Assembly: GCA_026397235.1 (NCBI GenBank)
Contig: JAPLVG010000023.1
Span: forward strand, 1 to 61,050
DNA length: 61,050 nucleotides
Direction: 5' to 3'
Source: Candidatus Berkelbacteria bacterium
GTDB lineage: Bacteria > Patescibacteriota > UBA1384 > XYA2-FULL-43-10 > CAINNR01
Positions 27,603 to 43,084 of this stretch are shown here, one piece after another. The position numbers were made by a program, and so were the translations under genes. The number at the start of each line of letters is the position of its first letter. The first letter of the stretch is position 1. Below the pieces are notes generated by a model. The model ran no database searches. It saw nothing but the letters and a program-made list of their open reading frames with translations, and had not been told where the DNA came from.

Positions 27603-27612
27603 ATAGTCTCTC

Positions 27613-27650
27613 AAAAAAAACTGGCCGAACTAATTAAGCCAGTTTTTTTT
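27613..27650 (+). terminator. Strong hairpin with flanking A8/T8 runs after rplO
   Basis: AAAAAAAACTGGC (27613-27625) / GCCAGTTTTTTTT (27638-27650). Confidence 0.75.
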
Positions 27651-27721
27651 GTACCTTGTTATTGAGTTTAGCGCACAAAAAGCGTACACTTTAGGCATAA
27701 ACTTGTCGATGCAAGATAATT

Positions 27722-28114
27722 ATGACTGATGAAATATTGAGCAAAATTGCAATCTTCCAGAAAAAAGAAATTCGCCGAGTCATTTTCAAAAATGAATGGT
27801 GGTTTGTGGTTGAAGACGTTGTTTTGGCATTGATCAACTCAAATGATCCAAAACAGTATATACAGCGTATGAAACTACGAGATTCCGAGTTAAGAAAAGG
27901 GTGGGTACAAATTGTACAGACCCTCCCGGTAGATACTCTTGGCGGTAAGCAGAAAATGGTTTGCGCCACAGCTGAGGGTTTGTTTCGCATTATTCAGTCT
28001 ATATCCTCGCCCAAAGCAGAACCGTTCAAACGCTGGCTAGCCAAAGTTGGTTACAAGCCTTCTCTCCCTGTCATTGCGAGCCATTTGTTTTTGTGTGAAG
28101 GCGCGGCAATCTAA
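27722..28114 (+). pseudogene. Bro-N-domain (antirepressor/DinD-like) gene, C-terminally truncated by the GIY-YIG element
   Basis: IAIFQKKEIRRVIFKNEWWFVVEDVVLAL...GGKQKMVCATAEGLFRII...AEPFKRWLAKV resembles Bro-N; the last ~20 codons (KPSLPVIASHLFLCEGAAI*) read into the GTCATTGCGAG repeat. Confidence 0.6.
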
Positions 28115-28441
28115 TAAATGAAATTAAAACGATATTATGTCTATTTGATGGTGAATCCTGCAAACTCTGTAATCTATGCCGGAGTCACAAACAATTTAAT
28201 TCGACGTGTGTTTGAACACAAGTGTAAGTTTATTGAGGGATTTACCAAAAAATACAATACAACAAAAGTAGTATATTGGGAGTGTTTTGATGATGTGAAA
28301 TCAGCCATAAATCGCGAGAAACAAATTAAATCAGGTTCCAGGCAAAAGAAAATTGATTTGATAATAAAACATAATCCCAAATTTAATGATTTGTACGGGG
28401 ATCTTTTGTAAGATTGCTTCGTCGTTCCTTCTCGCAATGAC
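28070..28441 (+). mobile_element. GTCAT...ATGAC hairpin element carrying a GIY-YIG ORF in its apical loop (filled copy)
   Basis: Outer arms GTCATTGCGAG (28070-28080) / CTCGCAATGAC (28431-28441); inner arms GGCAATCT (~28106-28113) / AGATTGC (28411-28417). The ORF lies exactly between the inner arms; an empty copy is at 56452-56555. Confidence 0.7.
28118..28411 (+). CDS. Small GIY-YIG nuclease-family protein
   Basis: 97 aa; YYVYLMV...VIYAGVTNNLIRRVFEHK...REKQIK matches the GIY-(x10)-YIG, R, E pattern. Confidence 0.85.
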   Translation: MKLKRYYVYLMVNPANSVIYAGVTNNLIRRVFEHKCKFIEGFTKKYNTTKVVYWECFDDVKSAINREKQIKSGSRQKKIDLIIKHNPKFNDLYGDLL

Positions 28442-28443
28442 GG

Positions 28444-28566
28444 AACCACGCAAAGGCCGGTGGGAATATTGCCGGTGGGGCGAGAAAAAATCTGGAAAAA
28501 CGGCTAGGCAGATCTGTCATCTCAAAACAAAATTATTTACCAAAGAAGAATAAATCAATTGAATAA
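28444..28566 (+). pseudogene. Possible orphan C-terminal fragment of the disrupted Bro-N/DinD-like gene
   Basis: Frame gives NHAKAGGNIAGGARKNLEKRLGRSVISKQNYLPKKNKSIE*, which I recall as typical of the C-terminus of this family; no start codon. Confidence 0.3.
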
Positions 28567-28570
28567 TCTT

Positions 28571-29305
28571 ATGAAAAACATTTTTTTAAAATCAATTTTG
28601 GGTGTCTTACTGTTTGTAGCATTTGTCGTGCTGGCTTTAGTTGCAATCTCCGGCGACAAAAAAGCAAAAGCTGTCGATGTTTGTTGGCAAAAAAACAATG
28701 GGCGCTACTCTTTTGGTGACTCAAACAAGGACTACGAAACAAAGTCATTGTGCCAATCAAACTATGTCTTGTACATGGAAATCGTAAATGGCACTGGTCC
28801 TCAATGCGTATCTGATCTTACCCAAAATGGAACATTTTCTGGCAGAGGGCAGACGTTCAGCACCAAGGAACAATGCAGAGCCTCTTTGCTTGCAACTTAC
28901 AATATGTCGGAATCCCGACCAACCTCGACTTCAAATGCCCCAACCTGCAATTATTCAAATGAATCAGCAAGTTGGAGGAGTAATTTACAAACAAAAATTA
29001 CCGCTTTGTATGCAGAGCTTTTAAAAAGAACTACCAACTCAAATGATTTTGCATATTGGCAGTCGGCGATGCCTTTTCGCAGTTGTGGCCAAACAATTGA
29101 CGAAACAAGCATTCGAGCATTTATTCAGACATCCGAAGAGTACAAGAATCTTCAAGCCGCGAGTACAACTGTTCAACCAGCTATTACCAACCAAAGTACC
29201 GAAGTTCAACTTGTAACCAAAACCGAAGCTCCAAAAACTGGTTTTCTTAACTATATTAAATCTATTCCTTCTCGCATCGCCAACTTTTTTAAGAGATTAT
29301 TTTAA
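28571..29305 (+). CDS. Secreted/membrane-anchored Cys-repeat protein with DUF4214-like C-terminal segment
   Basis: ATG at 28571 (ORF track TTG at 28559); N-terminal hydrophobic segment; two Cys-bounded ~28-aa repeats; LYAELLKRTTNSNDFAYWQS...IRAFIQTSEEY resembles DUF4214. Confidence 0.55.
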   Translation: MKNIFLKSILGVLLFVAFVVLALVAISGDKKAKAVDVCWQKNNGRYSFGDSNKDYETKSLCQSNYVLYMEIVNGTGPQCVSDLTQNGTFSGRGQTFSTKEQCRASLLATYNMSESRPTSTSNAPTCNYSNESASWRSNLQTKITALYAELLKRTTNSNDFAYWQSAMPFRSCGQTIDETSIRAFIQTSEEYKNLQAASTTVQPAITNQSTEVQLVTKTEAPKTGFLNYIKSIPSRIANFFKRLF

Positions 29306-29341
29306 TAACTTATGAAAAATATTTTTCTAACATCAAATGTA

Positions 29342-29409
29342 ACAAAAACACGTGAATAGCACCAGAAAACAGTAATCTATTCACTACTTATTGACAAAAA
29401 CACGTGAAT
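29342..29409 (+). promoter_or_regulatory. Two identical 16-nt direct repeats 52 nt apart
   Basis: ACAAAAACACGTGAAT at 29342-29357 and 29394-29409 (contains the CACGTG palindrome). Confidence 0.6.
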
Positions 29410-29487
29410 GTAGGCATTTTGTTAAACCGAGTGTATTATCATTTTCACCTTCTGTGAGGGCTAAGGCACTCTAGTATGTGGCAATTA

Positions 29488-29556
29488 TGCATAGTTTCAT
29501 GATATTTTGCATAGTTTATATAAATACTTGCATAGTTTAGCAAATAATGCTAAGAT
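29488..29556 (+). promoter_or_regulatory. Three TGCATAGTTT direct repeats overlapping a putative promoter of the HTH-ATPase gene
   Basis: TGCATAGTTT at 29488, 29508, 29529 (20-21-nt period); TTGCAT (29528-29533), 17-nt spacer, TAAGAT (29551-29556). Confidence 0.6.
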
Positions 29557-29574
29557 ATTGTAAGAGGAAATTAA

Positions 29575-30294
29575 ATGGAAGAAAAATTATTAACAATTGC
29601 TGAGGCAGCCGAAATACTCGGCGTTTCAATTGACACGCTCCGTCGCTGGGATAGTAGTGGGAAATTAGTTCCGATTAAAAAAGATGGCGGCGTACATCGG
29701 TTTTACCGAGAAAAAGATCTTGAAATATTTTCAAGTGATATTGTTGAACTTGCTCATGATTGGGCGAGAGATGGTTCAGAATTGCCTTCTATTTTCTACT
29801 GCGGCAATAGTGCAGTTTTTCAAGCCAGATTGTCAAAACTAGAGCATATCTTAATGAATCAACCGGGTTTCGAGAGGTTATTTTCGGTTATTATTGCCAT
29901 TGCCGGCGAGATCGGAAATAATTCTTTTGATCACAATCTGGGAAAGTGGCCGGATATACCGGGTATCTTTTTTGGATATGATATTAATAAAAAGCAAATT
30001 GTTCTTGCTGATCGTGGACTTGGTATTTTGGAGACACTTCGTCAAGTACGACCCAGCCTAAAAAATCATACCGAAGCTTTGATGGTGGCTTTTACTGAGA
30101 TTCTGTCTGGTCGTTCTCCAGAAAAGCGCGGAAATGGCTTAAAGTTCGTTCGAGAAGTTACAACAACTCAGCCAATTGACCTGTTTTTTGAAAGTGGCGA
30201 CGGTGAAGTTCGCATCAAGGCCCCAGATAAGGAGTTTCGTCTGACGCGCGGCCAAGAAATACTTCGCGGTTGCTTCGTCATAATTCAATTTTAA
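29575..30294 (+). CDS. MerR/excisionase-type HTH fused to a GHKL (histidine-kinase-like) ATPase domain
   Basis: 239 aa; LTIAEAAEILGVSIDTLRRWDSSGKL (HTH); N-box EIGNNSFDHN, G1 DRGLGI, G2 GNGLKF. Confidence 0.8.
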   Translation: MEEKLLTIAEAAEILGVSIDTLRRWDSSGKLVPIKKDGGVHRFYREKDLEIFSSDIVELAHDWARDGSELPSIFYCGNSAVFQARLSKLEHILMNQPGFERLFSVIIAIAGEIGNNSFDHNLGKWPDIPGIFFGYDINKKQIVLADRGLGILETLRQVRPSLKNHTEALMVAFTEILSGRSPEKRGNGLKFVREVTTTQPIDLFFESGDGEVRIKAPDKEFRLTRGQEILRGCFVIIQF

Positions 30295-30328
30295 AATTAG
30301 TTATAAAATAATAACGAAGGACAAATCT

Positions 30329-30619
30329 ATGCGTATTGAATTAAATAAATTTGGCACAACGCTTATTTCGCGTCAAGCAGGGTCTGAGGCTTTTAAGGCT
30401 TTTCAGTCAACATTGCAAGACATGAAGCCGGGTGAAAATCTTGAAATTGATTTTTCCGGTGTTTTAACATTTTCTCCATCTTGGGGAGATGAATTTGTGA
30501 GTCCTTTGTTTGATCAACTTGGAGACAACTTGGTCTTGTTAGCGAGCGACAATATGTCAGTTCAAGCAACATTAAAGCTATTGCAGGAAATCAAAAAACA
30601 ATCTTTTGTTATTCACTGA
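30329..30619 (+). CDS. STAS-like (DUF4325-type) small protein
   Basis: 96 aa; LEIDFSGVLTFSPSWGDEFVSPL matches my recollection of the DUF4325 STAS-like core. Confidence 0.65.
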   Translation: MRIELNKFGTTLISRQAGSEAFKAFQSTLQDMKPGENLEIDFSGVLTFSPSWGDEFVSPLFDQLGDNLVLLASDNMSVQATLKLLQEIKKQSFVIH

Positions 30620-30822
30620 TAATGATAAATAATAGAAACTTTCCGCTCCACGAATTTTTAATGCGGCGCTTCGCCAATCAATTCCTGCTTTCCGCGAACG
30701 CGGTGTCTGGAGAATAGCCAGTAACTATAACAAGATACAATAGTTTCGCCGAAGGCGAACACAGGGCGTTAAAAGCTCTGCTTATAAAATGAAAATTACA
30801 AAATAATTAACGTGGAATAATT

Positions 30823-31362
30823 ATGAAAATTACTTACTTTGTTCATGGCACAACAACTGACAATGAAAAGCACATTTCTTCCGGTTGGAAAGATGTAGAG
30901 CTTTCTGACCTTGGAATTCAACAATCAAAAGACTTGAAAAGTCAGGTAGATGTTAAGAAGTTCGATGTAGTTTTCTGTTCCGATTTAAAACGAGCGGTTG
31001 ATTCGACTAAGCTAACCTTTGAAGGAGTTGTACCAATTAAAATCGATCCACGATTACGTGAATGTAATTATGGCGACTTTAATGCTAACCCATCAGAAAT
31101 AGTTGAGCCAATGCAGGAAGAGAATATTGAAAAACCATTTCCAAATGGCGAAAGTTATGAAGATGTTAAAAAACGCATTAGTGAATTTCTGGAAGACATC
31201 AAAAAAGAGTATGGTAACAAACACATAGCAATTGTTGCTCACAAGGCTTCACAGCTAGCGCTGGATGTTATCATTAAAGGTATGACTTGGGACGAAGCCT
31301 TTGCCACAGATTGGCGTAAAGTTGGGAAATGGCAACCCGGTTGGGAATACGAGGTGAAATGA
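30823..31362 (+). CDS. Histidine phosphatase (phosphoglycerate-mutase-like) family protein
   Basis: 179 aa; ITYFVHGTTTDNE (RHG motif with V in place of R), DLKRA, VAHKASQ. Confidence 0.8.
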   Translation: MKITYFVHGTTTDNEKHISSGWKDVELSDLGIQQSKDLKSQVDVKKFDVVFCSDLKRAVDSTKLTFEGVVPIKIDPRLRECNYGDFNANPSEIVEPMQEENIEKPFPNGESYEDVKKRISEFLEDIKKEYGNKHIAIVAHKASQLALDVIIKGMTWDEAFATDWRKVGKWQPGWEYEVK

Positions 31363-31790
31363 TGGAAATTGTAATTGTCGACAATCCAAACCAATTAGAC
31401 ATCTTGTCGGACAAGACCGCGAATTTTGGTGAATTAAACTTTAAATTTTCACCAAAGTATTTAGCTGAACTAAAATCGCTTGTAAATAAATCACTGCAGT
31501 ACATTGCAACTATCGATGGAAATTTTGCTGGATATTTGGCGGCAAAAGAATCCGATATTTGGCCAGATAGTTTTCAGATTGTTGAATTATTTGTCGACCC
31601 ATCAGCCCAAAGAAAAGGGGTGGCATCTTCGTTGCTAGGAAAATTATTCACCGATGCCCATTGTCAGCTTGTTGTCGAAACTGAAAAAGAAAATCTACCT
31701 GCGATAACACTGTATAAAAAGCATGGTTTTGAAGAAGTCGAAAATGAAAATTGGGATGACATAACCTTGGTGAGAAATGACAATAAATAA
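31359..31790 (+). CDS. GNAT-family N-acetyltransferase
   Basis: ATG at 31359 overlaps the upstream stop (ATGA); VDPSAQRKGVASSLLGKL (motif A), LYKKHGFEEV. Confidence 0.8.
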   Translation: MMEIVIVDNPNQLDILSDKTANFGELNFKFSPKYLAELKSLVNKSLQYIATIDGNFAGYLAAKESDIWPDSFQIVELFVDPSAQRKGVASSLLGKLFTDAHCQLVVETEKENLPAITLYKKHGFEEVENENWDDITLVRNDNK

Positions 31791-32178
31791 AGCCGGTGCA
31801 ATTGTTAGAAAAATAGAAAACGGCGAAGTATATATTTTGCTTTTGCATTTGATTAAACACGACTTTTGGTCGTTCCCAAAAGGGCATATTGAAGAAGGTG
31901 AATCCGCAGAAGACACTGCAAAGCGCGAAATTCTTGAGGAAACAGGGCTTGTAATTAATATCACGAAACCGCTCGGAATCGCGAAGTATAAAGATATTGA
32001 TGGCAATGAAGTTAACTTAAATCTTTTCTTGGCCGATATTGAAAGTGGTGAGTTAGTTGAAGAAGAAGGCCACGAGTTAGTTTGGCTAACAGTTGATGAA
32101 GCAACAGAAAAACTAACCTACCCCGAACTCCGCGAATTTCTTTCTGATAAAAAATACGAAATAATTAACCTGGAATAA
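31777..32178 (+). CDS. NUDIX hydrolase
   Basis: 133 aa; Nudix box GHIEEGESAEDTAKREILEETGL. Confidence 0.9.
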   Translation: MTINKAGAIVRKIENGEVYILLLHLIKHDFWSFPKGHIEEGESAEDTAKREILEETGLVINITKPLGIAKYKDIDGNEVNLNLFLADIESGELVEEEGHELVWLTVDEATEKLTYPELREFLSDKKYEIINLE

Positions 32179-32180
32179 TT

Positions 32181-33080
32181 ATGCCAATTTTTAAAATCAA
32201 ACAAAATGCAGTTAATCAGTTAATGCTTGATAAAAATTATTTTAACAATGAATTCGAACTTAGGGATTTTTTTGCCGCCAATCTTGAACAGTTGCTAGGA
32301 TTAAGATTTTTAGAATCAGAATACCCAACTATAGACGGAAGAATAGATACTTTAGCCATAGACGAAACAAACTCCCCAGTTATTATTGAATACAAATGGG
32401 GACAAGATAATGCCATTTTTGTGCAGGGCTTGTTCTATCTAGACTGGTTGAAGAAAAATAAAAGACATTTTGATTTATTAGTAGCTAAAAAACTTGGTGA
32501 AGACGTAACTGTTAATTGGGCTAGTCCTCGAGTTATATTAATTGCATAAGGCTTTGATAACAGGACTATTACTGCAGTTCAGCAAGTTGATAGTGTTGAA
32601 CTTATAAAATATTCGCCTTATGAACAAGAAATTATCTACCTGGAAAATGTTTATGTGCCAAATAAGTCTAACCGCATTAAACAAAGTAATGATACAGATA
32701 GTTCGACAACTGAGGGGGCTGAGTTAGAAGAAACACATGATATTAGCTATCACTTGACTCGTCATAATTCGAATGCTGTCATAACCAAAGAGTTTCATAT
32801 GCTTAGAGAAAAAATACAGAATCTCCCTGGAGTAGAAGAAATAGTGAATTTTAAGACCGGAATTACTTATAGAACGACGAAAAGTTTTGCTAGGTTTGAA
32901 TTTGGAAGGACATTCATGAACGTCTTGGTTCGAGAACCGAAGTATAATGATCCTACACACTTGGTTCGTGATATCACTTCGCATATGTGGGGGTACAAAG
33001 GTAAAATCAAAGTTACATCTTCTGAAAATACTGACGCTGTTTTTGATATAATCAAACAGTCGTATGAAGAAACCTTGTGA
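32181..33080 (+). pseudogene. PD-(D/E)xK nuclease-like + DUF5655-like protein interrupted by one in-frame TAA
   Basis: ORFs 32181-32549 and 32655-33080 are in the same frame, and the frame is open between them except TAA at 32547-32549; paralogue of 33192-34115 (IDTLAIDETNSPVIIEYK vs IDSVALDESTNSVVLIEYK). Confidence 0.6.
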
Positions 33081-33191
33081 TGCTAACAGCTAATTTTACT
33101 AAGGTTAAATAACTGTTTACAGAAAAAGAAAACTCTCGCAATCTCAAGAGCGAAGTGCTATACTTTAGGCGTAAAATTAAGTGAAATAATT

Positions 33192-34115
33192 ATGGCAATT
33201 TTTAAAATTAATGATCAAAAGCTTGAAGCGATTTCTGAAAAGAAAATTGATTTAGAGCGCGATATTCAGAAACTCACCGAGCAAAACCTTGAAAATGTTT
33301 TTGGATTAAAATTTGTATGTGGTGCAAGCAACCAAGAATTTTGTGTTCGCGCAAATGAACAAGATTTCTACATTGATTCTGTAGCCCTAGATGAATCGAC
33401 TAACTCTGTTGTTCTTATTGAATACAAAAAGGATCGCAGTTTTTCAGTTATTGACCAGGGTTTTGCTTATCTATCTGCGATGCTGAACAATAAAGCTGAA
33501 TTTGTTTTGGAAATAAATGAGCGGCTTAAAAAAAATCTATCAAAAAAAGATATCGATTGGGAGCAATCTAGAATTATTTTTATTTCAAACGAATTCACAA
33601 ATTATCAAAAGAACGCCATCAACTTTAAGGATCTGCCAATGTTTTTGTACGAAGTAAAAATATATGACAACCTTATTGATTACAATCCAATCAAACCCTT
33701 CAAAACCAGTGAATCAATTAACAAATTTATCAAAGATAAAAAAGTCAGGGAAGTAGTAAATGAAGTCAAAGTTTATTCGATTGAAGATCATTTATCGAAA
33801 TCATTACCTGAAATTGTCGAAATCTATAACACGCTTAGCCAAAAAATTCATTCACTTGATACCAGAATTTTAGAGAAACCAGTAAGGGGCTATATCGGTT
33901 TTAAAATTCGCTACCATAACTTCTGTTCTCTCGCGGTACAAAAAAATAAAATCGGGGTTTATTTACGCGCCCAGAAAATATCTGATGGAAATAAACTTCT
34001 TAAAAGGATACCAAGTCAGAGTTCTTTGTGGCGATGTGATATAACTTCGCTTGATCAAATTGATGAGGTGTTTTTACTTATCCAACAATCATATAATCAG
34101 GCACCAGATAAATAA
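33192..34115 (+). CDS. PD-(D/E)xK nuclease-like N-domain + DUF5655-like C-domain protein (intact paralogue)
   Basis: 307 aa; D...E-x-K signature in YIDSVALDESTNSVVLIEYK; C-terminal YIGFKIRYHNFCSLAV... Confidence 0.65.
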   Translation: MAIFKINDQKLEAISEKKIDLERDIQKLTEQNLENVFGLKFVCGASNQEFCVRANEQDFYIDSVALDESTNSVVLIEYKKDRSFSVIDQGFAYLSAMLNNKAEFVLEINERLKKNLSKKDIDWEQSRIIFISNEFTNYQKNAINFKDLPMFLYEVKIYDNLIDYNPIKPFKTSESINKFIKDKKVREVVNEVKVYSIEDHLSKSLPEIVEIYNTLSQKIHSLDTRILEKPVRGYIGFKIRYHNFCSLAVQKNKIGVYLRAQKISDGNKLLKRIPSQSSLWRCDITSLDQIDEVFLLIQQSYNQAPDK

Positions 34116-34166
34116 AACAATAATGTCCGAAGCATTTTCACGAGTAGTAATTTGATAAATAAATAT

Positions 34167-35303
34167 ATGGCTAGAATATCCTCAATCAAAAATCTTAAGA
34201 AAGCAAGAAAAGCAAAAAATGATGAGTTCTATACTCAGTACATTGATATTCAAAAAGAGATTGAAAAGTATCTTGAATATAATCCTGATACTTTTCGCGA
34301 GAAGGTAGTTTATTGTAACTGTGATGACCCGTTTGAAAGTAATTTCTTCCGTTATTTTGTGCTAAATTTTAATAAGCTTGGATTAAAACAGCTCATCACA
34401 ACGAGCTACAAACCATCGCCTGTTGCCAATACGCAGCTAGGATTATTTGGTGATGACAAAACACTTGCAAATGAAAAAGGACGTCCAAAAATAACTGCAA
34501 ACAAATTTATTATCAACGAAGTGCGCGACATAGACGAAGATGGTGAGTTCAATTTGGAAGATGTTGCCAAGCAACTGAAGGTAAATAAGCACAATGAATG
34601 GGCGCCACTGGATGATGATGGCGATTTTCGTAGTGATGAGTGTGTCGAACTACTCAAGCAATCTGATATAGTAGTAACCAACCCGCCATTCAGCTTGTTT
34701 CGTGAATATGTTAAGCAGCTTTTCGATTATAATAAAAAGTTTTTGATCATCGGCAATATTAATTGCCTAACTTATAGAGAAATATTCCAAAAAATTAAAG
34801 AAAATAAAGCATGGCTTGGTAATGGGATGGGGAGGTGGATTTCTGGGTTTATTGTTCCTGAATCCTACGAATTGTATGGGTCGGAAGCTCGAATAGATGA
34901 AAATGGAGATAGAATTGTCGCCACTAACAATTGTTTGTGGCTTACTAATCTTGATCACGGACGACGCCATCAACCGTTACCGCTTATGACAACGGCTGAA
35001 AATTTAAAATATAGCAAACATAAAGAAATCAAAGGGAAAGAGTCGTATGATAAATACGATAATTACAACGCAATAGAGATACCTTTTACCGATGCTATAC
35101 CAAGTGATTATAAAGGCGCAATGGGTGTGCCAGTTACTTTTCTTGATAAATATAATCCTGATCAGTTTGAAATTTTAGGAAATTCTAATGTGCGAGGAGA
35201 CCGAGAACATTTAATGAATAATATTAAAAGCGCATCGGGTTGCACCTATATAAACGGTAAGCCACAATTTGCTCGTATTTTAATAAAACATAGGGAAAAA
35301 TAA
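34167..35303 (+). CDS. DNA N6-adenine methyltransferase (EcoRI-methylase-like family, by recollection)
   Basis: KNDEFYTQY...VYCNCDDPFESNFFRYF N-terminal signature and catalytic VVTNPPFSLF (NPPF); ATG 34167 preferred over ORF-track TTG 34152. Confidence 0.8.
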   Translation: MARISSIKNLKKARKAKNDEFYTQYIDIQKEIEKYLEYNPDTFREKVVYCNCDDPFESNFFRYFVLNFNKLGLKQLITTSYKPSPVANTQLGLFGDDKTLANEKGRPKITANKFIINEVRDIDEDGEFNLEDVAKQLKVNKHNEWAPLDDDGDFRSDECVELLKQSDIVVTNPPFSLFREYVKQLFDYNKKFLIIGNINCLTYREIFQKIKENKAWLGNGMGRWISGFIVPESYELYGSEARIDENGDRIVATNNCLWLTNLDHGRRHQPLPLMTTAENLKYSKHKEIKGKESYDKYDNYNAIEIPFTDAIPSDYKGAMGVPVTFLDKYNPDQFEILGNSNVRGDREHLMNNIKSASGCTYINGKPQFARILIKHREK

Positions 35304-35304
35304 T

Positions 35305-36474
35305 ATGAAAACAATTTTAACAACTACCACAACCGTAAAAGAAATCTGCGATGGATTTGTCTATAACGAGCTTGAAGGCAAGGGATTATTTGGCTTGTCG
35401 GGAAAGCTGACCATTCAACCGGAATATCAACGAAACTATATTTATGCTTCGGATGGCGGAAAAAGAGAAGCAGCTGTCATCGCATCTGTTTTGAAAGAAT
35501 ATCCCATTGGTTTGATCTATTTTAACAAGGTTAGCGATGATAAATTTGAAGTTTTGGACGGTCAGCAACGTATTACGAGCCTTGGCCGATTTATCACGGA
35601 CAAATTTGCAATAATCGATCAAAATGGCATGCCTCAGAATTTTAGCGGCATGGCCAAAGATAAGCAAACCAAGATTTTGGAAACAAAACTAACTATTTAT
35701 GAATGCGGGGGCAAAGAAAGCGAAATAAAAGAGTGGTTCAAGACGATTAATATTGCCGGTGTCCCGCTTAATAACCAAGAGCTCTTGAACGCGGTTTATT
35801 CGGGACCATTTGTGACGCGAGCCAAAGAAGAGTTTAGCAACAGTCAGAATGCCAATATCCAAAAATGGAGCGCGTATGTTAGCGGTAGCGCAAATCGGCA
35901 AGAGTTTTTAGAGAGAGCGCTAGACTGGTCTAGTAAAGGTGAGATCGGTGAATATATGAGTAGCCATCGATTTGATGATAATATTACCGAGCTAAAGAGC
36001 TATTTCAATTTAGTAATTGATTGGGTTTCTAGCGTTTTTAGTGATGTTGAAAGCGAGATGCGAGGTTTGCCATGGGGCCATTTCTATGAACAATATCACA
36101 AAAATTCATACAACCCCGGGAATGTGTCTGACAAGGTCCATAAGTTTTATAGCGATCCTTATATAAAAAGTCGCAAAGGCATTTTCGAATTTATCCTCGG
36201 GGGAGAAGTTGACACAAAATTACTTGAGATTAGAGTGTTTGACGAGGCGACTAAAAGATTGGTCTATTCCAAACAGACAGAAGCTGCAAAAGCTAAAGGC
36301 GTATCAAATTGCTCGTACTGTGCAATCGGTCACGATGCTAATAGAGACAAAATCTGGAGTTTAGACGAAATGGATGCCGATCATGTCGAAGCTTGGAGCA
36401 AGGGCGGCTCAACAGATATGATAAATTGTGAAATGTTGTGCAAAACACACAACCGAGCAAAAGGTAATCGATAG
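35305..36474 (+). CDS. DUF262 (ParB/GmrSD-N-like) + C-terminal HNH nuclease protein
   Basis: 389 aa; IQPEYQRNY, LDGQQRITSLG (DUF262); CSYC...DADHVEAWSKGG...NCEMLCKTHNRAKGN (HNH); starts 1 nt after the methyltransferase stop. Confidence 0.85.
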   Translation: MKTILTTTTTVKEICDGFVYNELEGKGLFGLSGKLTIQPEYQRNYIYASDGGKREAAVIASVLKEYPIGLIYFNKVSDDKFEVLDGQQRITSLGRFITDKFAIIDQNGMPQNFSGMAKDKQTKILETKLTIYECGGKESEIKEWFKTINIAGVPLNNQELLNAVYSGPFVTRAKEEFSNSQNANIQKWSAYVSGSANRQEFLERALDWSSKGEIGEYMSSHRFDDNITELKSYFNLVIDWVSSVFSDVESEMRGLPWGHFYEQYHKNSYNPGNVSDKVHKFYSDPYIKSRKGIFEFILGGEVDTKLLEIRVFDEATKRLVYSKQTEAAKAKGVSNCSYCAIGHDANRDKIWSLDEMDADHVEAWSKGGSTDMINCEMLCKTHNRAKGNR

Positions 36475-36479
36475 CTCAC

Positions 36480-37175
36480 ATGGAATATCAGATTATTCTA
36501 AAACACAAGGATAAAACTTATCGTGTCTCAAAATTGGTAGCGGCGGGTGACGGTTCTCTGTACTGGTATTTTCCAAATTCTCAAAAATATTATGTTCGTG
36601 CTGTCAAAGTTGTCAAATGGAGACCTGGAAAATCTAAAATAAAATTGGAGGGGAGACACAGGTTTTGCTCCGATCCATATGTCAGCTTTCATCCCGGTAA
36701 AGGAATAATTCACGCGAAAGGTAAAAGCAAGCTCGGCCAAAGCATTAATCTTGTTGAGGATTCTGAGCAAATAAGCTTTGATAAATTGGCTTTAGCATTG
36801 TCTCACCAAGTTATATTCTCATTCGTCGTGCCTAGCAAGCTCAATGTATTAGATGAGTACAACAAAATAGTTTGTTTAGTATCTGATTTGGTATTTAAAT
36901 CTGACAAAGAAGAAATCGATACAAGTTTAAATTTTGAATTTTTTGTCCATAACTCTGGCGGAGTTGTTGATATTGATGACTTGAAAGCTCGTACTAATAG
37001 AAACATAATTGCCGTGAAAGAAATTCAGCTCAGAAATTGTTACTTTACTATAACCTGTGTGGTGAGTTCGATTAGGATTGTCAACTCAAAAGATTTGGTC
37101 TGTGAAATCCCAAGAGGGGCAAAAATTGAACCTGTGTTTTTTGCTCTTAGAAAAAACCCAAAAAATAATGATTGA
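36480..37175 (+). CDS. Hypothetical protein
   Basis: 231 aa, starts 5 nt after the DUF262-HNH stop; no family recognised. Confidence 0.55.
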   Translation: MEYQIILKHKDKTYRVSKLVAAGDGSLYWYFPNSQKYYVRAVKVVKWRPGKSKIKLEGRHRFCSDPYVSFHPGKGIIHAKGKSKLGQSINLVEDSEQISFDKLALALSHQVIFSFVVPSKLNVLDEYNKIVCLVSDLVFKSDKEEIDTSLNFEFFVHNSGGVVDIDDLKARTNRNIIAVKEIQLRNCYFTITCVVSSIRIVNSKDLVCEIPRGAKIEPVFFALRKNPKNND

Positions 37176-37244
37176 CAAAACCATAACGTTTAATAGAAGA
37201 TGAAGCTGTTATAAATTGCAGGATCTAAGATCAATATTTGCCAA

Positions 37245-38252
37245 ATGGACAAAACGCCTAAAAACCAACTAAGCATTTTGATACGTTTTAGTTTTTGTGA
37301 TAGTAACGCTCAAGCAATAGACCTTTATACCAGAAATGCCTGTGTGCTAGCTCAAGCTGAGATAATAACATTTATATTAGGCGGACTCTGCCCCGGTGAG
37401 CCATTTGAAATTTTGACTTTACCACCTCAAAGTGGCTCATTCAAAGACTTAACAGTTGTAAAATTGTTAAATAATAACACAGGCTGCGTTGCAGCATTAA
37501 GCGTTTTGCTTATGGCGCTCCTGTTCAGCAGCCAGTTGAAAGTTAATAATACAACTTCAGACTTGAATGTTCTGGAGATTGTTGAAAAATGCAAAAACTA
37601 TGGAGTGAGTGAGGAGCTCACTGAAAAAGTGAAAAATATATGCAGCTCTTACTACCCTAAAAAACAGAAAAACATTTTCTATGAATCTGTAATAGCTGAC
37701 GAAAGTGTGACGAGCATCAAGCCAACGATAACAGAAGACCACGAAACTTTTGAAAAAGAAATTAATAGAAGTGATTTTCGAGAATTTATTGAAGAAATAC
37801 CGAAAGAAAAAGAATACTTGAAAACGGATTTATTGGGTCATATTCAGTTATCGCAGCCATTTATTGAAAAGCAGCAACAATATGGCAGGGGTGTTGCCTG
37901 GAAAGGGATGTATTTTGGCGAGGATGTAGTAGATGATCGAGGTGAAATAATTATTGAGGATGGCGAGAACATATTTTTCTACATGCAAGATGATGAATAT
38001 AAGGATCAGATATTAAAGCAAGAGGTCTCGTTTACTAGCGGTGATAATATCGGAGTCATTTTTGATGTTAATAGATATTATGATTACATTGAAAGTAGAT
38101 ATGGAAAGCCAAGATTGTATGTAAAAAAAGTGACATCTCATAATGATAACCTAGTTGAGCATAAGAAAGAATTGGAGATTAAAAGACAAGTCGTAAAGAG
38201 AGAAAAGCAAAATAAAAATCAAAAGTCGCTATTTGAGAATATTGAAACATAG
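37245..38252 (+). CDS. Hypothetical protein (one hydrophobic segment, acidic C-terminal half)
   Basis: 335 aa; no family recognised. Confidence 0.55.
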   Translation: MDKTPKNQLSILIRFSFCDSNAQAIDLYTRNACVLAQAEIITFILGGLCPGEPFEILTLPPQSGSFKDLTVVKLLNNNTGCVAALSVLLMALLFSSQLKVNNTTSDLNVLEIVEKCKNYGVSEELTEKVKNICSSYYPKKQKNIFYESVIADESVTSIKPTITEDHETFEKEINRSDFREFIEEIPKEKEYLKTDLLGHIQLSQPFIEKQQQYGRGVAWKGMYFGEDVVDDRGEIIIEDGENIFFYMQDDEYKDQILKQEVSFTSGDNIGVIFDVNRYYDYIESRYGKPRLYVKKVTSHNDNLVEHKKELEIKRQVVKREKQNKNQKSLFENIET

Positions 38253-38500
38253 CGTTAATACGGCAACAAAATTCTTAATAAAGATAGGGATCCAGCGCCA
38301 GTTGTAAATAATTTGGACAATAATTATGCAAAAACTAATTCAAGAATTTTTGAGAGTTAGGGATTTGCCCTACAGAATTCCACTTTCGTACGAAGATATC
38401 GAACATTATCAAAAAATTATTGTCGTCCTAGTCGAAACCAATCTGATTATGAAAGAAATCGACGAGGTTGTCGTTTTGTAAATAATGGTTACAGTTCTAT

Positions 38501-38529
38501 TGACAACTATATTTACATATATTATACTC
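38501..38529 (+). promoter_or_regulatory. Consensus sigma70-like promoter for the DUF2188 gene / TA module
   Basis: TTGACA (38501-38506), 17-nt spacer, TATACT (38524-38529); AAAGGAG SD before ATG 38556. Confidence 0.65.
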
Positions 38530-38555
38530 AGGGTAATTAACAAAGGAGTGTAATT

Positions 38556-38789
38556 ATGTCCGGTAAACAAATCTGGGTTTCGCCGGCTGATGACGGCTGG
38601 CGCGTTCACAAACCAGGAACAGTGAAAGATTCTGCTCGTACTGATACTAAAGCAGAAGCACTAGAAATCGCTGAAAGGATTGCAAGGAATCAAAACTTAG
38701 ACACAAAGGTTCAGCGAGCCGATGGTAAATTGTCAGCAGAGGGGAATACATACCCTCGTTCGCGAGACAAGTTTCCGCCACGAGGTTAG
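38556..38789 (+). CDS. DUF2188-family small protein
   Basis: 77 aa; WVSPADDGWRVHKPG...TKAEALEIAERIARNQ...RADGKL pattern. Confidence 0.7.
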   Translation: MSGKQIWVSPADDGWRVHKPGTVKDSARTDTKAEALEIAERIARNQNLDTKVQRADGKLSAEGNTYPRSRDKFPPRG

Positions 38790-38829
38790 TCAGTGAAGTG
38801 AATAATATAAATTAGCAGGAGGGGCTATC

Positions 38830-39585
38830 ATGAATTATTTTAAGAAATTGTTATTGGAGAAAAAAATTTCGCACGAGAAGCTTGCGGATATTTTTGGTAT
38901 TTCTCGTCCGACAGCCGCTAAAATCGCAAACGGTGATAAAGAAATGACCATAACAGAGCTGAGAAGGTTGGCAGAGGTGCTTGGAATTTCTGTTGACGAA
39001 GTGCTGGGTGAGAAGACGTCCGAAATTGTTTTAGAGTGTCCAAAGGAGAAAGCCAAGCCAACAGAACGAATCAGTGTTCCAGCAGAAGATGCTGAAAAAT
39101 TTAAGAATGTTCTGCTTTACATTACTCAAAAAATTGGAGCTCTTCCTAATGTTGGTCAGACTGTTCTGTATAAAATTTTATATTTCTGCGACTTTGATTA
39201 TTATGAGAAATTTGAAGAGCAACTTACTGGTGCACGGTATATCAGAAATCATTATGGGCCGACTCCAGTTGCGTTTGCAAAAATCGTTAAAACTATGATA
39301 ACTGCTGGAGAAATTGAAGAAGTAAAAACCAAATATTTCAATAAGGAACAAACCAAATATATCCCTGTGATCGAGCCGAACTTATCTGTATTGTCAGGGC
39401 AAGAGCTTAAACACATTGATGAGGAAATTGAGAAATTGGGAGGAATGACTGCTACTGAATTGTCGAACTTGTCCCATAAAGATGTACCCTGGATCGTCAC
39501 AAAGGAAGGGGATGAAATTCCTTACGAAACTGCTTTTTACAGAACACCTGACACCTCGGTAAGGGATTATGATGATAGTTTATAG
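38830..39585 (+). CDS. XRE-HTH + Panacea (DUF4065) domain antitoxin-like protein
   Basis: 251 aa; HTH ISHEKLADIFGISRPTAAKIANG; LYKILYFCDFDYYEKFEEQLTGARYIRNHYGPTP resembles DUF4065/SocA. Confidence 0.75.
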   Translation: MNYFKKLLLEKKISHEKLADIFGISRPTAAKIANGDKEMTITELRRLAEVLGISVDEVLGEKTSEIVLECPKEKAKPTERISVPAEDAEKFKNVLLYITQKIGALPNVGQTVLYKILYFCDFDYYEKFEEQLTGARYIRNHYGPTPVAFAKIVKTMITAGEIEEVKTKYFNKEQTKYIPVIEPNLSVLSGQELKHIDEEIEKLGGMTATELSNLSHKDVPWIVTKEGDEIPYETAFYRTPDTSVRDYDDSL

Positions 39586-39952
39586 CAAGCATCCAAGATT
39601 CGAAAAGCAGTTGAAAAAACTTCTAAAGAAGTATAGAACCCTGGAAGACGATTTGTTGATTGCCAAAAAAGCTGTAATTGAGCTATCACATGTTAATAAA
39701 ATCGACAACAGATCAGTTGAATTAGTTCCAGGATTTGATCATCAAGAAATTCAAATTTTTAAGATTAAGAAATTTGCCTGTAAAGCACTCGTTGGCAAAG
39801 GTGTTAGGAGTGGAATCCGAATTGTTTATGCATATTTTCCCGAACAAAATCATGTTAAATATTTAGAAATCTATTACAAAGAGAAAGATAACACGGATAT
39901 GGATTATGATTTTGTCAAAAATTATGTAGCAGAAATTATGAAGAGAACATGA
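39569..39952 (+). CDS. RelE/ParE-superfamily-like toxin partner
   Basis: 127 aa; overlaps the upstream gene by 17 nt; GIRIVYAYFPEQNHVKYLEIYYKEKD resembles the RelE/ParE-fold C-terminal strands. Confidence 0.6.
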   Translation: MMIVYSKHPRFEKQLKKLLKKYRTLEDDLLIAKKAVIELSHVNKIDNRSVELVPGFDHQEIQIFKIKKFACKALVGKGVRSGIRIVYAYFPEQNHVKYLEIYYKEKDNTDMDYDFVKNYVAEIMKRT

Positions 39953-39997
39953 CCATGCAATTCGAGTCCATATTACAATAACTATTATATAGAAAAT

Positions 39998-40042
39998 ATG
40001 AGCGAATATTACAAAGCAAATCGTGATTCATTTATTAGATAA
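39998..40042 (+). pseudogene. 14-codon remnant of the 5' end of a PD-(D/E)xK (Cas4-like) gene
   Basis: MSEYYKANRDSFIR*; the first 8 codons match the intact gene at 43741 (MSEYYKANR). Confidence 0.5.
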
Positions 40043-40090
40043 TATTATGAAAGATTATAAGATTTGGACAGGTAGAGAAAGATTGATTTC

Positions 40091-40687
40091 TTGCAAACCA
40101 ACCAAAAAATAATAGCATTCAATTTTATGGAAAAGCTCTCCTGCAATCTTGATAATACTAACTGGGAGAATATTCGGGTTGGGGCTCGGAAGTATATAGC
40201 CATAATGCAGATGGTTAAGAATACGAATGTTCGAACAGACGAAAGTTTTCGTAGAGCGTTTAATGGATTTTATCGTATAAGGCAGAGATCAAAAGAGTTT
40301 TACGATTTCCTTTATGAATATCTGGAAAGAAATAAAGAAATTAATACTTCTTTCAAACAAACATTATATTCTTTCTATGAGAAGTTTCAGCGTCTTGAGC
40401 CTTCATTTTCGAGTAAGATCGTAGCGACAATCAATCCAAACTTTCCTGTTTGGGATTCGGAAGTTCTGGCTAGGTTTGGGAAGAGAACACTTGGACATAA
40501 TTTAAACAAGGATATTAGACTGAAGGAAATGGTTAAAATATACAGTGAAATATCTGATTGGTATGCCGAATTTTTAGAAACTGACCAAGCAAAAGCAATG
40601 ATTGGATTGTTTGACCAAAAGATCGGCAAGCTAGAAATTACCGACATTAAAAAAATTGATTTAATTCTCTGGCAAACTAGGTCATGA
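40091..40687 (+). CDS. Hypothetical protein (start uncertain: TTG 40091 or ATG 40127)
   Basis: 198 aa; no family recognised with confidence. Confidence 0.5.
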   Translation: MQTNQKIIAFNFMEKLSCNLDNTNWENIRVGARKYIAIMQMVKNTNVRTDESFRRAFNGFYRIRQRSKEFYDFLYEYLERNKEINTSFKQTLYSFYEKFQRLEPSFSSKIVATINPNFPVWDSEVLARFGKRTLGHNLNKDIRLKEMVKIYSEISDWYAEFLETDQAKAMIGLFDQKIGKLEITDIKKIDLILWQTRS

Positions 40688-40782
40688 ATTCTGAATTAAT
40701 CAAAAAGAAAAGAAATACTATGTATAAACTTTCACCATCAGACTTTGCTTACTTGTACAAAGATTGTAAGCTTTGCTATTAG
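40684..40782 (+). pseudogene. N-terminal fragment of a second Cas4-like/PD-(D/E)xK-family gene ending at an in-frame TAG
   Basis: MNSELIKKKRNTMYKLSPSDFAYLYKDCKLCY* ; the S..F......C..C(F/Y) pattern parallels ISRSKLENFMNCSRCFY of 43741-44514. Confidence 0.4.
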
Positions 40783-40820
40783 TTAAAAATTAAACATGAC
40801 ATCACCCGCCAAAGGATTCT

Positions 40821-40865
40821 ATTCCACTTCTATGCGGAGTTTACCCTGTGGGAAGTATAGTAGTG
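40821..40865. repeat. Left copy of a ~45-52-bp inverted repeat
   Basis: The reverse complement CACTACTATACTTCCCACAGGGTAAACTCCGCATAG... matches 42728-42763 at 33/36 positions. Confidence 0.85.
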
Positions 40866-40936
40866 AAATACTGTGTCGGAGACACAAAAAGCTGGTATGG
40901 GTGTTTATGTAAATATCAATATATGACTTATAACTT

Positions 40937-41671
40937 ATGAAACCACAATATGATCTAGAGAAAATTAAGCTTGGAATTGATGAAGGAACGTGGAAGCGCG
41001 CAGTTGCTTTGTACGAATCTAATGCGGTGGAAAACTTCCGGGTACAATTTGGTGATTTTTTCGCGAAAGTAATTGGCGGCGAACCATATAATGTTTTTGT
41101 TTCATCGAAAGTTTATGACGAGGGCAATTGTAATTGTTATCTTGGGCGAAGTGAAATTTTGTGCAAACACATGGTTGCAGTCGCTATTTACGCTGTTAAA
41201 GGTGGACGCAAATTAACCAAAGAGGAAAAGGAATTGAGCCATCAGGTTGTGTTTAGCGGATTAGTTGGTGAACTAACAGAATTAGAATTAACCAATGTTA
41301 AAACAAATATCACAGCGTCACTTAAATATATTAAGTCTTACCATGGTCCCTCTCGGAGTTGGTTTCAATATCAAAATTCACTTACCGAGGGCTGTAATCG
41401 CTTAGCAAAAATTGTTTCTGGATTGCCTATATGCCCGCACACTTCGAGCATTCTAGTTGACTTGTTATTGCGGGCTGACAAGAAATTAACAGCTAGCGGC
41501 ATAGATGATTCAGACGGAATAGTTGGGGCATTCATTGAGGCGGTAGTGTTGTTACTCATGGATTTTTCAAAGTTAGATAAGAATTGTATAAAAACATTTT
41601 CGAAGTTAGTCGGCAAGGAAACCTGTTTTGGCTGGGAGTCCCCACTTTTAGAAATATATGATTCTTTATAA
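40937..41671 (+). CDS. SWIM zinc-finger protein
   Basis: 244 aa; CNCYLGRSEILCKHMVAVAIYA (CxC...CxH SWIM signature). Confidence 0.75.
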   Translation: MKPQYDLEKIKLGIDEGTWKRAVALYESNAVENFRVQFGDFFAKVIGGEPYNVFVSSKVYDEGNCNCYLGRSEILCKHMVAVAIYAVKGGRKLTKEEKELSHQVVFSGLVGELTELELTNVKTNITASLKYIKSYHGPSRSWFQYQNSLTEGCNRLAKIVSGLPICPHTSSILVDLLLRADKKLTASGIDDSDGIVGAFIEAVVLLLMDFSKLDKNCIKTFSKLVGKETCFGWESPLLEIYDSL

Positions 41672-41690
41672 TGGTTGAGATTTGTAATAG

Positions 41691-42441
41691 ATGAAAAGAA
41701 AAAAAATAACACAGAAAGAGCGGCGCACGATTGTTGAAAGTGTTGTCGGTAATGTGCCATGGGAGCAATTTACCCCCGGAATTTATAATAATTGTGATCG
41801 TTGGTGTGAGCGGTGCAGCAAAACTGAGAAATGTTATTTATTTTTTGAAGAGAAAAAAGAAGAGAATCGACGAACAAAAAGAAAAAAAGCCAAGAGATAC
41901 CGCTGGATCACTTAAAAAAGTTGGCGAATCACTTGGGCAAGTAAAGGATTTGATTCAGAAAATTTGTGATGCTGAAGGCATTGATGTTTCCATGACGCCA
42001 GAAGAGGAAGCTGAATATGAAAGAAGAGAGAAATTAACCGATCCGCACAATGATCCGATCGCTATCAGAGCCAGTAGATTATCAAAGTCAATATATAAAT
42101 GGTTGGATTCTGTACCGTCTCTAGACATGGTGAAGTATCAAGAAGCCTACGACCAAGTTTCTTGGCATTGGTCGCTGATTGGAGTAAAAACTGCGATGGC
42201 AATCCATTGCCAAAAGGAAACAGAAATTGAAGAAGGAAGTTCAAGAAAATTTGCCTTGGATCAACAACAGAAGTACAGCTGGATGGCTTATCGCTCGACC
42301 CAGATTTGCAAAAAAGGTTTTGAATTAATGGATGGCTATGTAAAAGATTCCAGAATAAGGCCCATTATTGATGAGAGTCAGAAATTAATGGGTCTAATCG
42401 ATAAAAAATTGTTGGCAACTGATATAATAATAAAGCAATGA
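41691..42441 (+). pseudogene. Cys-rich/helical protein gene requiring a +1 frame change in an A-rich tract
   Basis: ORF 41691-41915 (CDRWCERCSKTEKC...) and ORF 41731-42441 (+1 frame) overlap; plausible coding sense switches frame between ~41845 and ~41912, where A6, A5 and A7 runs occur. Confidence 0.5.
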
Positions 42442-42555
42442 CAGCGAGAGAATTAATGAAAATTAAAGGGTTCGAATTTGACGGGTTTATACGCTAAGAA
42501 AGAGTTTTAATCTTACGGAATCCCATAACATTAAAAAACTAAACTAGGAAAAAAT

Positions 42556-42717
42556 ATGTCAGATTATTACAAAGCAAATCGAACAAAAAATATCTTTGAT
42601 CCTAAATCGGATCAGGCTTTTAAGATCTCTAGAAGCAAACTGGAAAAATGTATTGTGGTTTGTCAGGTCGGTACGGTTAAATCAGCTTTCACAATTAGTA
42701 GAATAAAAAGAGTATAG
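42556..42717 (+). pseudogene. Truncated 5' copy (~30 codons of homology) of the Cas4-like gene
   Basis: MSDYYKANRTKNIFDPKSDQAFKISRSKLEK... parallels MSEYYKANRTKNLYDPKNDQAFKISRSKLEN of 43741, then diverges and stops at 42715-42717. Confidence 0.6.
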
Positions 42718-42727
42718 AATGATACGC

Positions 42728-43078: not shown

Positions 43079-43084
43079 AGTCTG

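Follow-up and report, generated by a model that had tools for sequence, protein, structure and literature searches.

Gene pair and its distribution

The subject of this analysis is a pair of adjacent genes, here termed A and B, and the control region in front of them, found in a 61,050-nt stretch of contig JAPLVG010000023.1 (assembly GCA_026397235.1) from a Candidatus Berkelbacteria bacterium of the Patescibacteria, or Candidate Phyla Radiation (CPR). The whole stretch is referred to below as the window, and the gene pair with its control region as the cassette. The two genes are located as follows:

29575..30294, + strand: gene A, encoding a 239-amino-acid (aa) helix-turn-helix (HTH)-GHKL protein, a putative CapK-like kinase/ATPase that carries a DNA-binding domain
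30329..30619, + strand: gene B, encoding a 96-aa STAS-like (DUF4325) protein

An original prediction, made from the letters of the window and a list of its open reading frames (ORFs), had placed these two genes 34 nt apart, and the ORF calls bear this out. The spacer contains a GAAGGA ribosome-binding site. A database search at E<=1e-3 returned 5984 homologue clusters for A and 1136 for B, indicating that both ORFs are real genes; the best 120 homologues of each share 67-100% identity, and their named sources are all metagenome-assembled genomes of Patescibacteria/CPR. When one genome per GTDB species was scanned, a homologue of A was found in at least 598 species representatives, nearly all of them Patescibacteria. 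The family is nevertheless a narrow one, since the C-terminal 185 residues of A, compared by phmmer with 1.84 billion representatives, found 307 relatives only. The pairing is strict: B lies directly after A, with a gap of 7-96 nt, in 84 of the 85 loci that were fetched, and the remaining locus ends at a contig edge. The searched literature contained no description of this cassette family.

Protein A: a DNA-binding domain fused to a GHKL domain

The coding sequence of A can be divided into the following parts:

29587..29727, + strand: BldC/excisionase/MerR-type winged HTH, residues 5-51 (Pfam and NCBIfam matches, superposition on BldC)
29632..29634, + strand: codon of D20, the proposed specificity residue, at the start of the recognition helix
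29740..29874, + strand: two-helix linker, residues 56-100, with the invariant W63 (codon 29761-29763) and F82
29875..30291, + strand: GHKL/Bergerat-fold domain, residues 101-239, with N-box E112/N116, G1 D146-R-G-L-G and G2 R185-G-N-G-L-K

Residues 5-51 scored above the cut-off for three Pfam families (MerR_1, MerR and HTH_17). The top NCBIfam match was BldC, with excisionase also among the best, and in a fold search with the AlphaFold2 model this part superposed on BldC (6ama/6amk) with a root-mean-square deviation of 1.5-1.6 A and an identity of 43-44%. Between the HTH and the GHKL domain the secondary structure of the model has two helices only (residues 56-66 and 79-94). W63 is kept in 138 of 138 locus copies and F82 in 137 of them, and in an alignment of 56 diverse relatives the linker segment is retained by proteins without the HTH. 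In some of these relatives the MerR-type HTH is swapped for another winged HTH, and in others there is none.

The N-box (E112-x3-N116-x3-H120), G1 (D146-R-G148-x-G150) and G2 (R185-G-N-G-L-K190) motifs of the C-terminal domain are invariant in the 56 relatives and the 138 locus copies, E112 itself being almost invariant. The AlphaFold2 model of A has a mean pLDDT of 91.9, and the only PDB fold matches of its C-terminal part were GHKL ATPase domains (Hsp90/TRAP1, GyrB and topoisomerase II; probability 0.96-1.0, E about 1e-3), while the remaining listed matches fall on the HTH; the low TM (template modelling) scores of these matches are due to the two-domain query. Weak profile matches were found among the 56 relatives, to HATPase_c_2 in 11 and to HATPase_c in 6 (best E 5e-4 to 7e-4, HATPase_c_2 reaching 7e-4 at best). 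For the GHKL part, no PDB entry was retrieved by sequence, whether the query was the single sequence or a profile. Together, the motifs, the model and the matches of the relatives confirm that the C-terminal domain of A is a GHKL (Bergerat-fold) domain. The fusion of a MerR/excisionase-type HTH to an anti-sigma-kinase-like GHKL domain, as it had been proposed from the letters of the window, is thereby substantiated.

Protein B: a single STAS-like domain

The window B protein reached 22.2 bits against the DUF4325 profile, just below the 23-bit cut-off, and PF14213 is assigned to many of its homologues in the precomputed Pfam column of the database. The protein consists of one single STAS-like domain of 96 aa. 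Its AlphaFold2 model (pLDDT 94.8) is nearest to RsbS/stressosome STAS proteins and other anti-sigma antagonists, with TM scores of 0.54-0.68 and weak E-values of 0.17-1. The near-threshold profile score, the PF14213 homologues and the STAS-like fold agree with the earlier assignment of B as a DUF4325-type partner of A, and for both proteins the expected folds were recovered.

The homologue alignment contains an almost invariant motif, D41-F-S-G-V-L-T-F-S49-P-S51-W-G-D-E-F, and its FSPSWGDEF part holds two candidate phospho-acceptors:

30479..30481, + strand: codon of S51, candidate phospho-acceptor of B
30473..30475, + strand: codon of S49, candidate phospho-acceptor of B

All 129 locus copies have S51 and W52, and one of 32 database homologues has Ala in place of S51; at position 49, 127 of the 129 copies have S or T.

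At another locus (L207, 4001-4873) a 194-aa relative of A without the HTH is accompanied by its own DUF4325 partner (PF14213 match), and the pair is located between def and fmt, which usually form one operon.

Comparison with SpoIIAB/SpoIIAA and RsbW/RsbV

The same two folds are paired in the partner-switching modules SpoIIAB/SpoIIAA and RsbW/RsbV, in which the kinase domain is also about 140 aa long, and the model of B is nearest to RsbS-type structures. In an hhalign comparison with SpoIIAB, the N, G1 and G2 boxes of A were aligned, but the sequence similarity was very low (E 0.05 and a probability of 1%). The differences are considerable. The kinase-like domain of A is fused to a DNA-binding domain, unlike in SpoIIAB and RsbW, and the order of the genes, kinase then STAS, is the reverse of that in the spoIIA operon, where spoIIAA precedes spoIIAB. 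SpoIIAB and RsbW act on a sigma factor, whereas no sigma factor or PP2C phosphatase is conserved near the cassette. This last point comes from a survey that took in the two nearest genes to either side of the pair at 73 distinct loci (274 proteins, 137 upstream and 137 downstream) and turned up no sigma factor, PP2C phosphatase, toxin or immune operon as a conserved neighbour. The earlier remark that no sigma factor lies near the pair thus holds for the recurrent neighbours across the surveyed loci; one locus (L001) has an unrelated sigma-70 gene 6 kb from the cassette.

Control region and operator

The region upstream of A contains the following elements:

29487..29497, + strand: operator repeat R1, ATGCATAGTTT (direct-repeat search)
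29507..29517, + strand: operator repeat R2, TTGCATAGTTT (direct-repeat search)
29528..29538, + strand: operator repeat R3, TTGCATAGTTT, whose first six bases, TTGCAT, read as a putative -35 element
29548..29556, + strand: extended -10 element of the inferred promoter, TGcTAAGAT, 17 nt after the -35 and about 20 nt before the ATG

The repeat-containing control region noticed earlier thus resolves to three direct repeats, spaced by 20 and then 21 bp, of which R3 overlaps the putative -35, and they are kept in independent loci. By a strict pattern, three repeats at the same 20/21-bp spacing occur in 66 of 81 distinct loci, the others having at least two, and the flanking sequences are unrelated. 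R3 lies 35-48 nt upstream of the ATG of A in all loci, and TGnTAnnnT recurs at the same distance in others. A consensus promoter scan of the window did not list a promoter with this -10 element, and the promoter is proposed from its conservation. It has no 19-bp spacer, which is typical of promoters regulated by MerR proteins.

Two main types of operator, GCATAG and G(G/T/A)GTAG, track the sequence of the HTH. Loci whose A protein has D20 carry CA at repeat bases 4-5 in 33-34 of 34 cases; in N20 loci C is never first (29/29), and two loci with Q20 or M20 have TA at these bases. A T20 relative of A on a viral contig (53% identity) is preceded by ATGAGTAGGTT repeats of the GAGTAGG type, 21 bp apart. 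Of the 239 positions of A, residue 20 shares the most mutual information with the type of operator, followed by residue 14. The correspondence might represent a simple recognition code, which can be tested by a one-residue/two-base swap: repeats of the TTGGGTAGATT type should be preferred by a D20N variant of A. In the upstream region of the HTH-less relative at L207 no such repeats were seen.

BldC of Streptomyces binds direct repeats head-to-tail, and four closely packed repeats fit in a 36-mer (PMC5859096). The HTH of A has in common with BldC the winged fold without the coiled coil of MerR proteins, and direct repeats rather than palindromes as its probable target. It differs in being tethered to an enzyme domain and in the repeats being 20-21 bp apart, while BldC is a stand-alone protein of 68 residues. 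The conserved repeats, their covariation with residue 20, the BldC precedent and the lack of repeats in front of the HTH-less relative are consistent with the binding of A to its own promoter. Thus, these comparative data point to an autoregulation of the cassette by A via the three-repeat operator. Since each repeat holds a -35-like hexamer, the most likely outcome of binding would be the occlusion of RNA polymerase, that is, autorepression.

Further upstream, two perfect copies of ACAAAAACACGTGAAT (16 nt, with a CACGTG palindrome as its core) are found at 29342-29357 and 29394-29409, 52 bp apart, with an imperfect inverted partner at 29377-29393. ACAAAAACACGTGAAT was considered as a part of the module and rejected, as it is absent from all 209 related loci, and it is therefore specific to this lineage. 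An Rfam search of the whole window found no RNA gene, tRNAs included. A possible RNA element in the 203-nt spacer after B was also dropped, its folding being unremarkable (z = -1.9).

Relationship to CapK/CapS and VapKSC

A better precedent than the sigma-factor modules is provided by CapK/CapS, a DNA-damage-activated "controller of adjacent pathways". CapK, of HTH-STAS-GHKL architecture, is turned on by single-stranded DNA (ssDNA) and phosphorylates CapS, a STAS protein with a winged HTH (wHTH), at S54, upon which the CapS dimer comes apart and repression of the neighbouring immune operon is lifted (Chambers et al., EMBO J 2026, PMC13373217). In the related VapKSC, which is both a toxin-antitoxin and an anti-phage system, a PIN toxin is set free once VapS is phosphorylated (PMC13373217). 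The CapK/CapS paper names neither DUF4325 nor Patescibacteria.

The CapK and CapS sequences, taken from the source data of this paper, were aligned by hhalign with alignments of A (A1, 56 members) and B (A2). A matched the kinase core of CapK from the N-box to beyond G2 with E 2.7e-5 and 30% identity, and the motifs correspond well (SELIGNVRDH in CapK and GEIGNNSFDH in A, SDSGLGI and ADRGLGI, ARGLGLK and KRGNGLK). B matched the STAS domain of CapS with E 8.5e-5, S51 of B falling on the phosphorylated S54. In the PDB, the sequence that the B profile matched best was Escherichia VapS (9z7o), though not significantly (E 0.12). The cassette and CapK/CapS share the gene order, kinase then STAS, a kinase that begins with an HTH and ends with a GHKL domain of the anti-sigma type, the conserved serine with which STAS helix 2 starts, autoregulation of the operon (probable for the cassette), and a frequent location beside restriction-modification genes. 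With VapK/VapS the cassette has in common a CapK-like kinase and a small STAS protein without a DNA-binding domain, as well as an S-P motif at the phospho-serine of VapS (FASPFF), where B reads FSPSW. Owing to this homology, the cassette is no longer without precedent.

There are differences on both sides of the comparison. CapS is a DNA-binding repressor by virtue of its wHTH, while B, with its 96 aa, has neither a wHTH nor any other output domain, and the putative DNA-binding element of the cassette is the HTH of the kinase, facing three direct repeats instead of the palindromes of CapK/CapS. CapK/CapS is followed by an immune operon, whereas the cassette has no conserved one, and CapK/CapS belongs to Proteobacteria, the cassette to Patescibacteria. 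VapK has an internal STAS domain and no HTH, and A the opposite; B has no counterpart of the C-terminal inhibitory helix of VapS; and no VapC/PIN toxin gene, such as VapKSC possesses, lies within two genes of the pair in the surveyed loci. The PIN family is also absent from the 25 commonest families on each side and from the window ORFs that were scanned. Judged from the profile alignments, the cassette is a remote relative of CapK/CapS and, by architecture, not a member of it.

Proposed mechanism

On balance, the locus is probably a self-contained, autoregulated two-gene signalling cassette, in which A acts as a kinase-repressor and B as its STAS substrate and partner. I read it as a minimal, horizontally mobile variant of CapK/CapS in which the kinase is also the DNA-binding output. 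At rest, A (perhaps jointly with B) would sit on the three repeats, two helical turns apart, via its BldC/Xis-type HTH. With R3 serving as the -35 of the promoter of A itself, bound A would occlude RNA polymerase and keep transcription low. The GHKL domain would be an active enzyme of the anti-sigma-kinase/CapK type, which would bind B and phosphorylate it at S51 (or possibly S49), where STAS helix 2 begins. If the analogy with SpoIIAB/SpoIIAA and CapK/CapS holds, the kinase activity and the A-B complex would be altered by a stress signal. The best guess for this signal, again by analogy with CapK, is ssDNA arising from DNA damage or phage attack and sensed through the W63 segment; an alternative could be the ATP/ADP ratio, to which SpoIIAB-type chemistry responds. 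The oligomerisation of A on the repeats would then change, the promoter would open and the cassette would be de-repressed, possibly along with genes transcribed through it or others carrying the same operator.

Several observations weigh against this interpretation. The probabilities of the hhalign matches are modest (74% for A with CapK, 60% for B with CapS), and the window A protein has no Pfam HATPase match even at E<=1. A is much shorter than CapK (239 against 368 aa), and its two-helix linker takes the place of the internal STAS domain that contributes one half of the predicted ssDNA groove in CapK. W63 follows just after the HTH, like W68 of CapK, but hhalign does not align the two; with the internal STAS domain missing as well, ssDNA as the signal is a guess. 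Deletion of the CapK HTH had no effect, and it is CapS, not the kinase, that binds DNA (PMC13373217), so that the proposed wiring of a kinase through its own HTH has no experimental precedent. Three sites fit poorly with a dimeric kinase of the SpoIIAB type. The covariation between HTH and operator is largely a split into two clades, and shared ancestry could inflate it, which makes it suggestive rather than a proof. No conserved phosphatase that could reset the switch was found near the cassette in the surveyed loci. Finally, the top structural matches of A are GHL ATPases such as GyrB and Hsp90, and not protein kinases.

The last point gives rise to another explanation, that the GHKL domain works as a dimerisation clamp driven by ATP, like those of GyrB, MutL or MORC. 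A would then be a DNA-architectural ATPase loading on the repeats, with an ATPase cycle modulated by B and no phosphorylation of B involved. The near invariance of E112, which is the general base in GHL ATPases, would agree with this, as would the ability of BldC-type HTHs to form DNA-distorting filaments on direct repeats. However, the transducer domain and the N-terminal strap typical of GHL ATPases are missing, the domain has the size of SpoIIAB, its sequence relatives are HATPase_c_2 and CapK, and B retains the serine at which CapS and VapS are phosphorylated; a clamp therefore seems very improbable.

If the kinase-repressor reading is correct, the CapK/CapS family, described in 2026, is widened to a minimal form in which the kinase is apparently the DNA-binding output, and a possible role is suggested for the unexplained HTH of CapK. 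The pair of anti-sigma kinase and STAS protein would have been rewired once more, here without a sigma factor or toxin. Patescibacteria have very small genomes with few recognisable regulators, and their sensing of stress and phages is almost unknown. Being abundant (the species representatives above and thousands of metagenomic variants), more alike across distant lineages than the ribosomal proteins, and equipped with a defined operator, the cassette is among the few CPR circuits that could be rebuilt in a surrogate host.

Genomic surroundings and mobility

In the window the cassette is part of a variable region:

27603..45888, no strand: variable island (context), 18.3 kb between rplO (ends at 27602) and secY (starts at 45889), splitting the ribosomal spc operon

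The island is flanked by the genes of L6, L18, S5 and L15 upstream and of SecY, Adk and Map downstream. It encodes Bro-N and GIY-YIG proteins, a 248-aa ORF with a hydrophobic N-terminus and no Pfam match, the cassette, His_Phos/GNAT/NUDIX proteins, NucS-like/DUF5655 proteins (PDC-S18), an EcoRI-type (type II) methyltransferase with a GmrSD-HNH restriction enzyme, PDC-S42, an HTH-SocA/Panacea protein, a SWIM protein, Fic, a Cas4-like nuclease, a Trp-repressor-like protein and a nucleoside hydrolase. This content agrees with the description of a defence-type island given in the original prediction; of the other loci, a minority only have such a setting. The His_Phos gene beside B was considered as a dedicated phosphatase and rejected, because it is not a conserved neighbour.

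The upstream neighbours in the 73 surveyed loci match 185 Pfam families and the downstream ones 200, and no family occurs more than four times. The recurring neighbours are mobile or defence genes only: N6/N4 methyltransferases, type I/IIG restriction genes, Fic, Bro-N (in four loci, that of the window among them), AbiEi/AbiEii and IS200. Housekeeping neighbours differ between loci, and the pair does not occur mainly in one housekeeping context with a known function. Between the genomes of the window and of locus L003, A is 70% and B 67% identical, while ribosomal proteins S5 and L15 are 42% and 36% identical. An identity so far above that of ribosomal proteins indicates either that the cassette moves horizontally within the phylum or that it is under unusually strong constraint.

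Only 6 of the 73 loci have a terminator-like hairpin after B. In 54 of them the next gene has the same orientation, and in 19 it lies within 41 nt. With terminators rare and the next genes mostly co-oriented, read-through into variable cargo, following the "controller of adjacent pathways" logic, is plausible but unproven.

The closest relative of the window cassette (92% identity) is present at locus L007 in two identical copies (1952-3091 and 6949-8088), which might be a real duplication or an assembly artefact. Between the copies lie a putative AbiEi-like gene, a 427-aa ORF adjoining it that may be AbiEii, and a 363-aa ORF.

Orphan operators and decayed cassettes

A metagenome collection was scanned for the R2-R3 pattern, and 80 matching loci were read. 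An A homologue follows in 51 of them, 4 lie at contig ends, and 25 have other contexts. Three of the latter are decayed cassettes, with an operator followed by B (L092, 6967-7268), an 18-codon stub of A and then B (L156, 9868-10265), or an operator and the truncated start of B (L124, 1212-1243, minus strand). Elsewhere there is no cassette, and the operator lies upstream of an EcoRI-type methyltransferase with RhuM (L128, 4823-4854), phage NinG (L142, 7239-7270), terminase gpA (L160, 2435-2466) or RadC (L117, 243-294), or beside a CHAP-domain gene, possibly of a phage lysin (L104/L146). Operator-type repeats without a cassette are also found upstream of rpoB-rpoC (L112, 53-125; the same at L126). 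As in the cassette, the spacing of the repeats at L112, L126, L128, L142, L160 and L117 is 20/21 bp. No stand-alone A-like HTH was found within the captured DNA of these loci. The orphan operators may be trans targets or leftovers of lost cassettes.

Two others of the 25 hold long tandem arrays of the operator unit, which resemble iteron or decoy arrays. One has at least five 21-bp units of TTCTTTGCATAGTTTCTGAAC (L109, about 760-900), and in the other CATAGATT recurs densely, about every 10-11 bp (L088, about 220-400).

The decayed cassettes bear on the possibility that the pair is a stand-alone toxin-antitoxin or abortive-infection module, in which the kinase/ATPase or its unchecked DNA binding would be harmful, the STAS protein would neutralise it, and the HTH would provide an autoregulation as in type II toxin-antitoxin systems. 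The compact two-gene arrangement with its own operator-promoter would suit such a module, the variable positions and high identity suggest a selfish, horizontally moving element, the recurrent neighbours include DNA methyltransferases, restriction genes, Fic, Bro-N and AbiE, the related VapKSC is itself a toxin-antitoxin, and the existence of decayed cassettes would also be in line with it. But the toxicity of VapKSC resides in a PIN nuclease, of which there is none here, and neither A nor B has a recognisable toxin domain. PADLOC v2 found no defence system among the window proteins: the HTH alone matched generic entries (mad1 and methyltransferase-associated HTH), while the GHKL domain and B were unmatched. 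Loci that keep B alone or the operator alone fit poorly with an essential antitoxin, and the strong conservation of the ATP-binding site and of the STAS serine is the pattern of a signalling pair. Such a module is thus unlikely. Where the original prediction had left a choice between a sensor or regulator and a two-gene defence or abortive module, the former is now the better supported.

Viral relative and alternative regulatory roles

Among 2.9 million viral contigs a single relative of A was found (L086, 5575-8101), the T20 protein mentioned above. It is 255 aa long and follows right after a 556-aa serine integrase, on a contig with terminase and replication-initiator genes, and its C-terminal part matches phrog_3364, a PHROG family without known function. 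Another explanation could be that a temperate phage or integrative element of Patescibacteria uses the cassette as its repressor or decision module, either for a lysogeny switch of the CI/LexA kind or for the control of excision, the chromosomal copies being remnants or immunity genes against repeat-bearing phage DNA. The excisionase/BldC/Xis type of the HTH, the integrase in front of the viral relative and its PHROG match, the cassette-less operator pairs by NinG, terminase gpA and the CHAP-domain gene, and the Bro-N neighbours all speak for it. Against it stand the rarity of viral relatives, the BFVD viral structure library, which gave per-domain matches only and no full-length analogue of A, and the lack of integrase and phage genes among the two nearest genes to either side of most chromosomal loci; nor is there an integrase among the scanned ORFs of the window island. 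A phage switch therefore appears doubtful, with a low probability.

The operator-promoter upstream of rpoB raises the further question of whether A is a chromosomal global regulator, a partner-switching sensor of stress or energy (ATP/ADP) with a dispersed regulon and no special link to defence, in bacteria that have very few transcription factors. The wide occurrence among species, the location of many loci among housekeeping genes (aminoacyl-tRNA synthetases, YchF and def/fmt) and the sensitivity of SpoIIAB-type chemistry to ATP/ADP would be in line with this. A vertically inherited core regulator, however, would not be expected to change its position or to be so much more alike than the ribosomal proteins, and the only recurring neighbours are mobile and defence genes. 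Moreover, scans of the window and of 878 kb of DNA surrounding the cassettes turned up no further operator, the duplicated cassette of L007 excepted. This role is considered quite improbable, more so than the phage switch.

A broader form of the kinase-repressor reading can also be envisaged, in which the cassette would be a damage or infection sensor circulating horizontally throughout Patescibacteria, its kinase-repressor reading a shared operator code that is also found upstream of phage, restriction-modification methyltransferase, RadC and rpoB genes. The idea is speculative and probably incorrect. If true, one switch would couple host stress to mobile, defence and phage genes in trans, and the cassette would stand in for a circuit of the LexA/CI type in reduced genomes, with phages exploiting it or being silenced by it.

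At some distance from the cassette, the GC content of the window rises to 0.47-0.51 at 50001-52000, compared with about 0.38 elsewhere, and this segment contains a 573-aa ORF on the minus strand (50034-51755).

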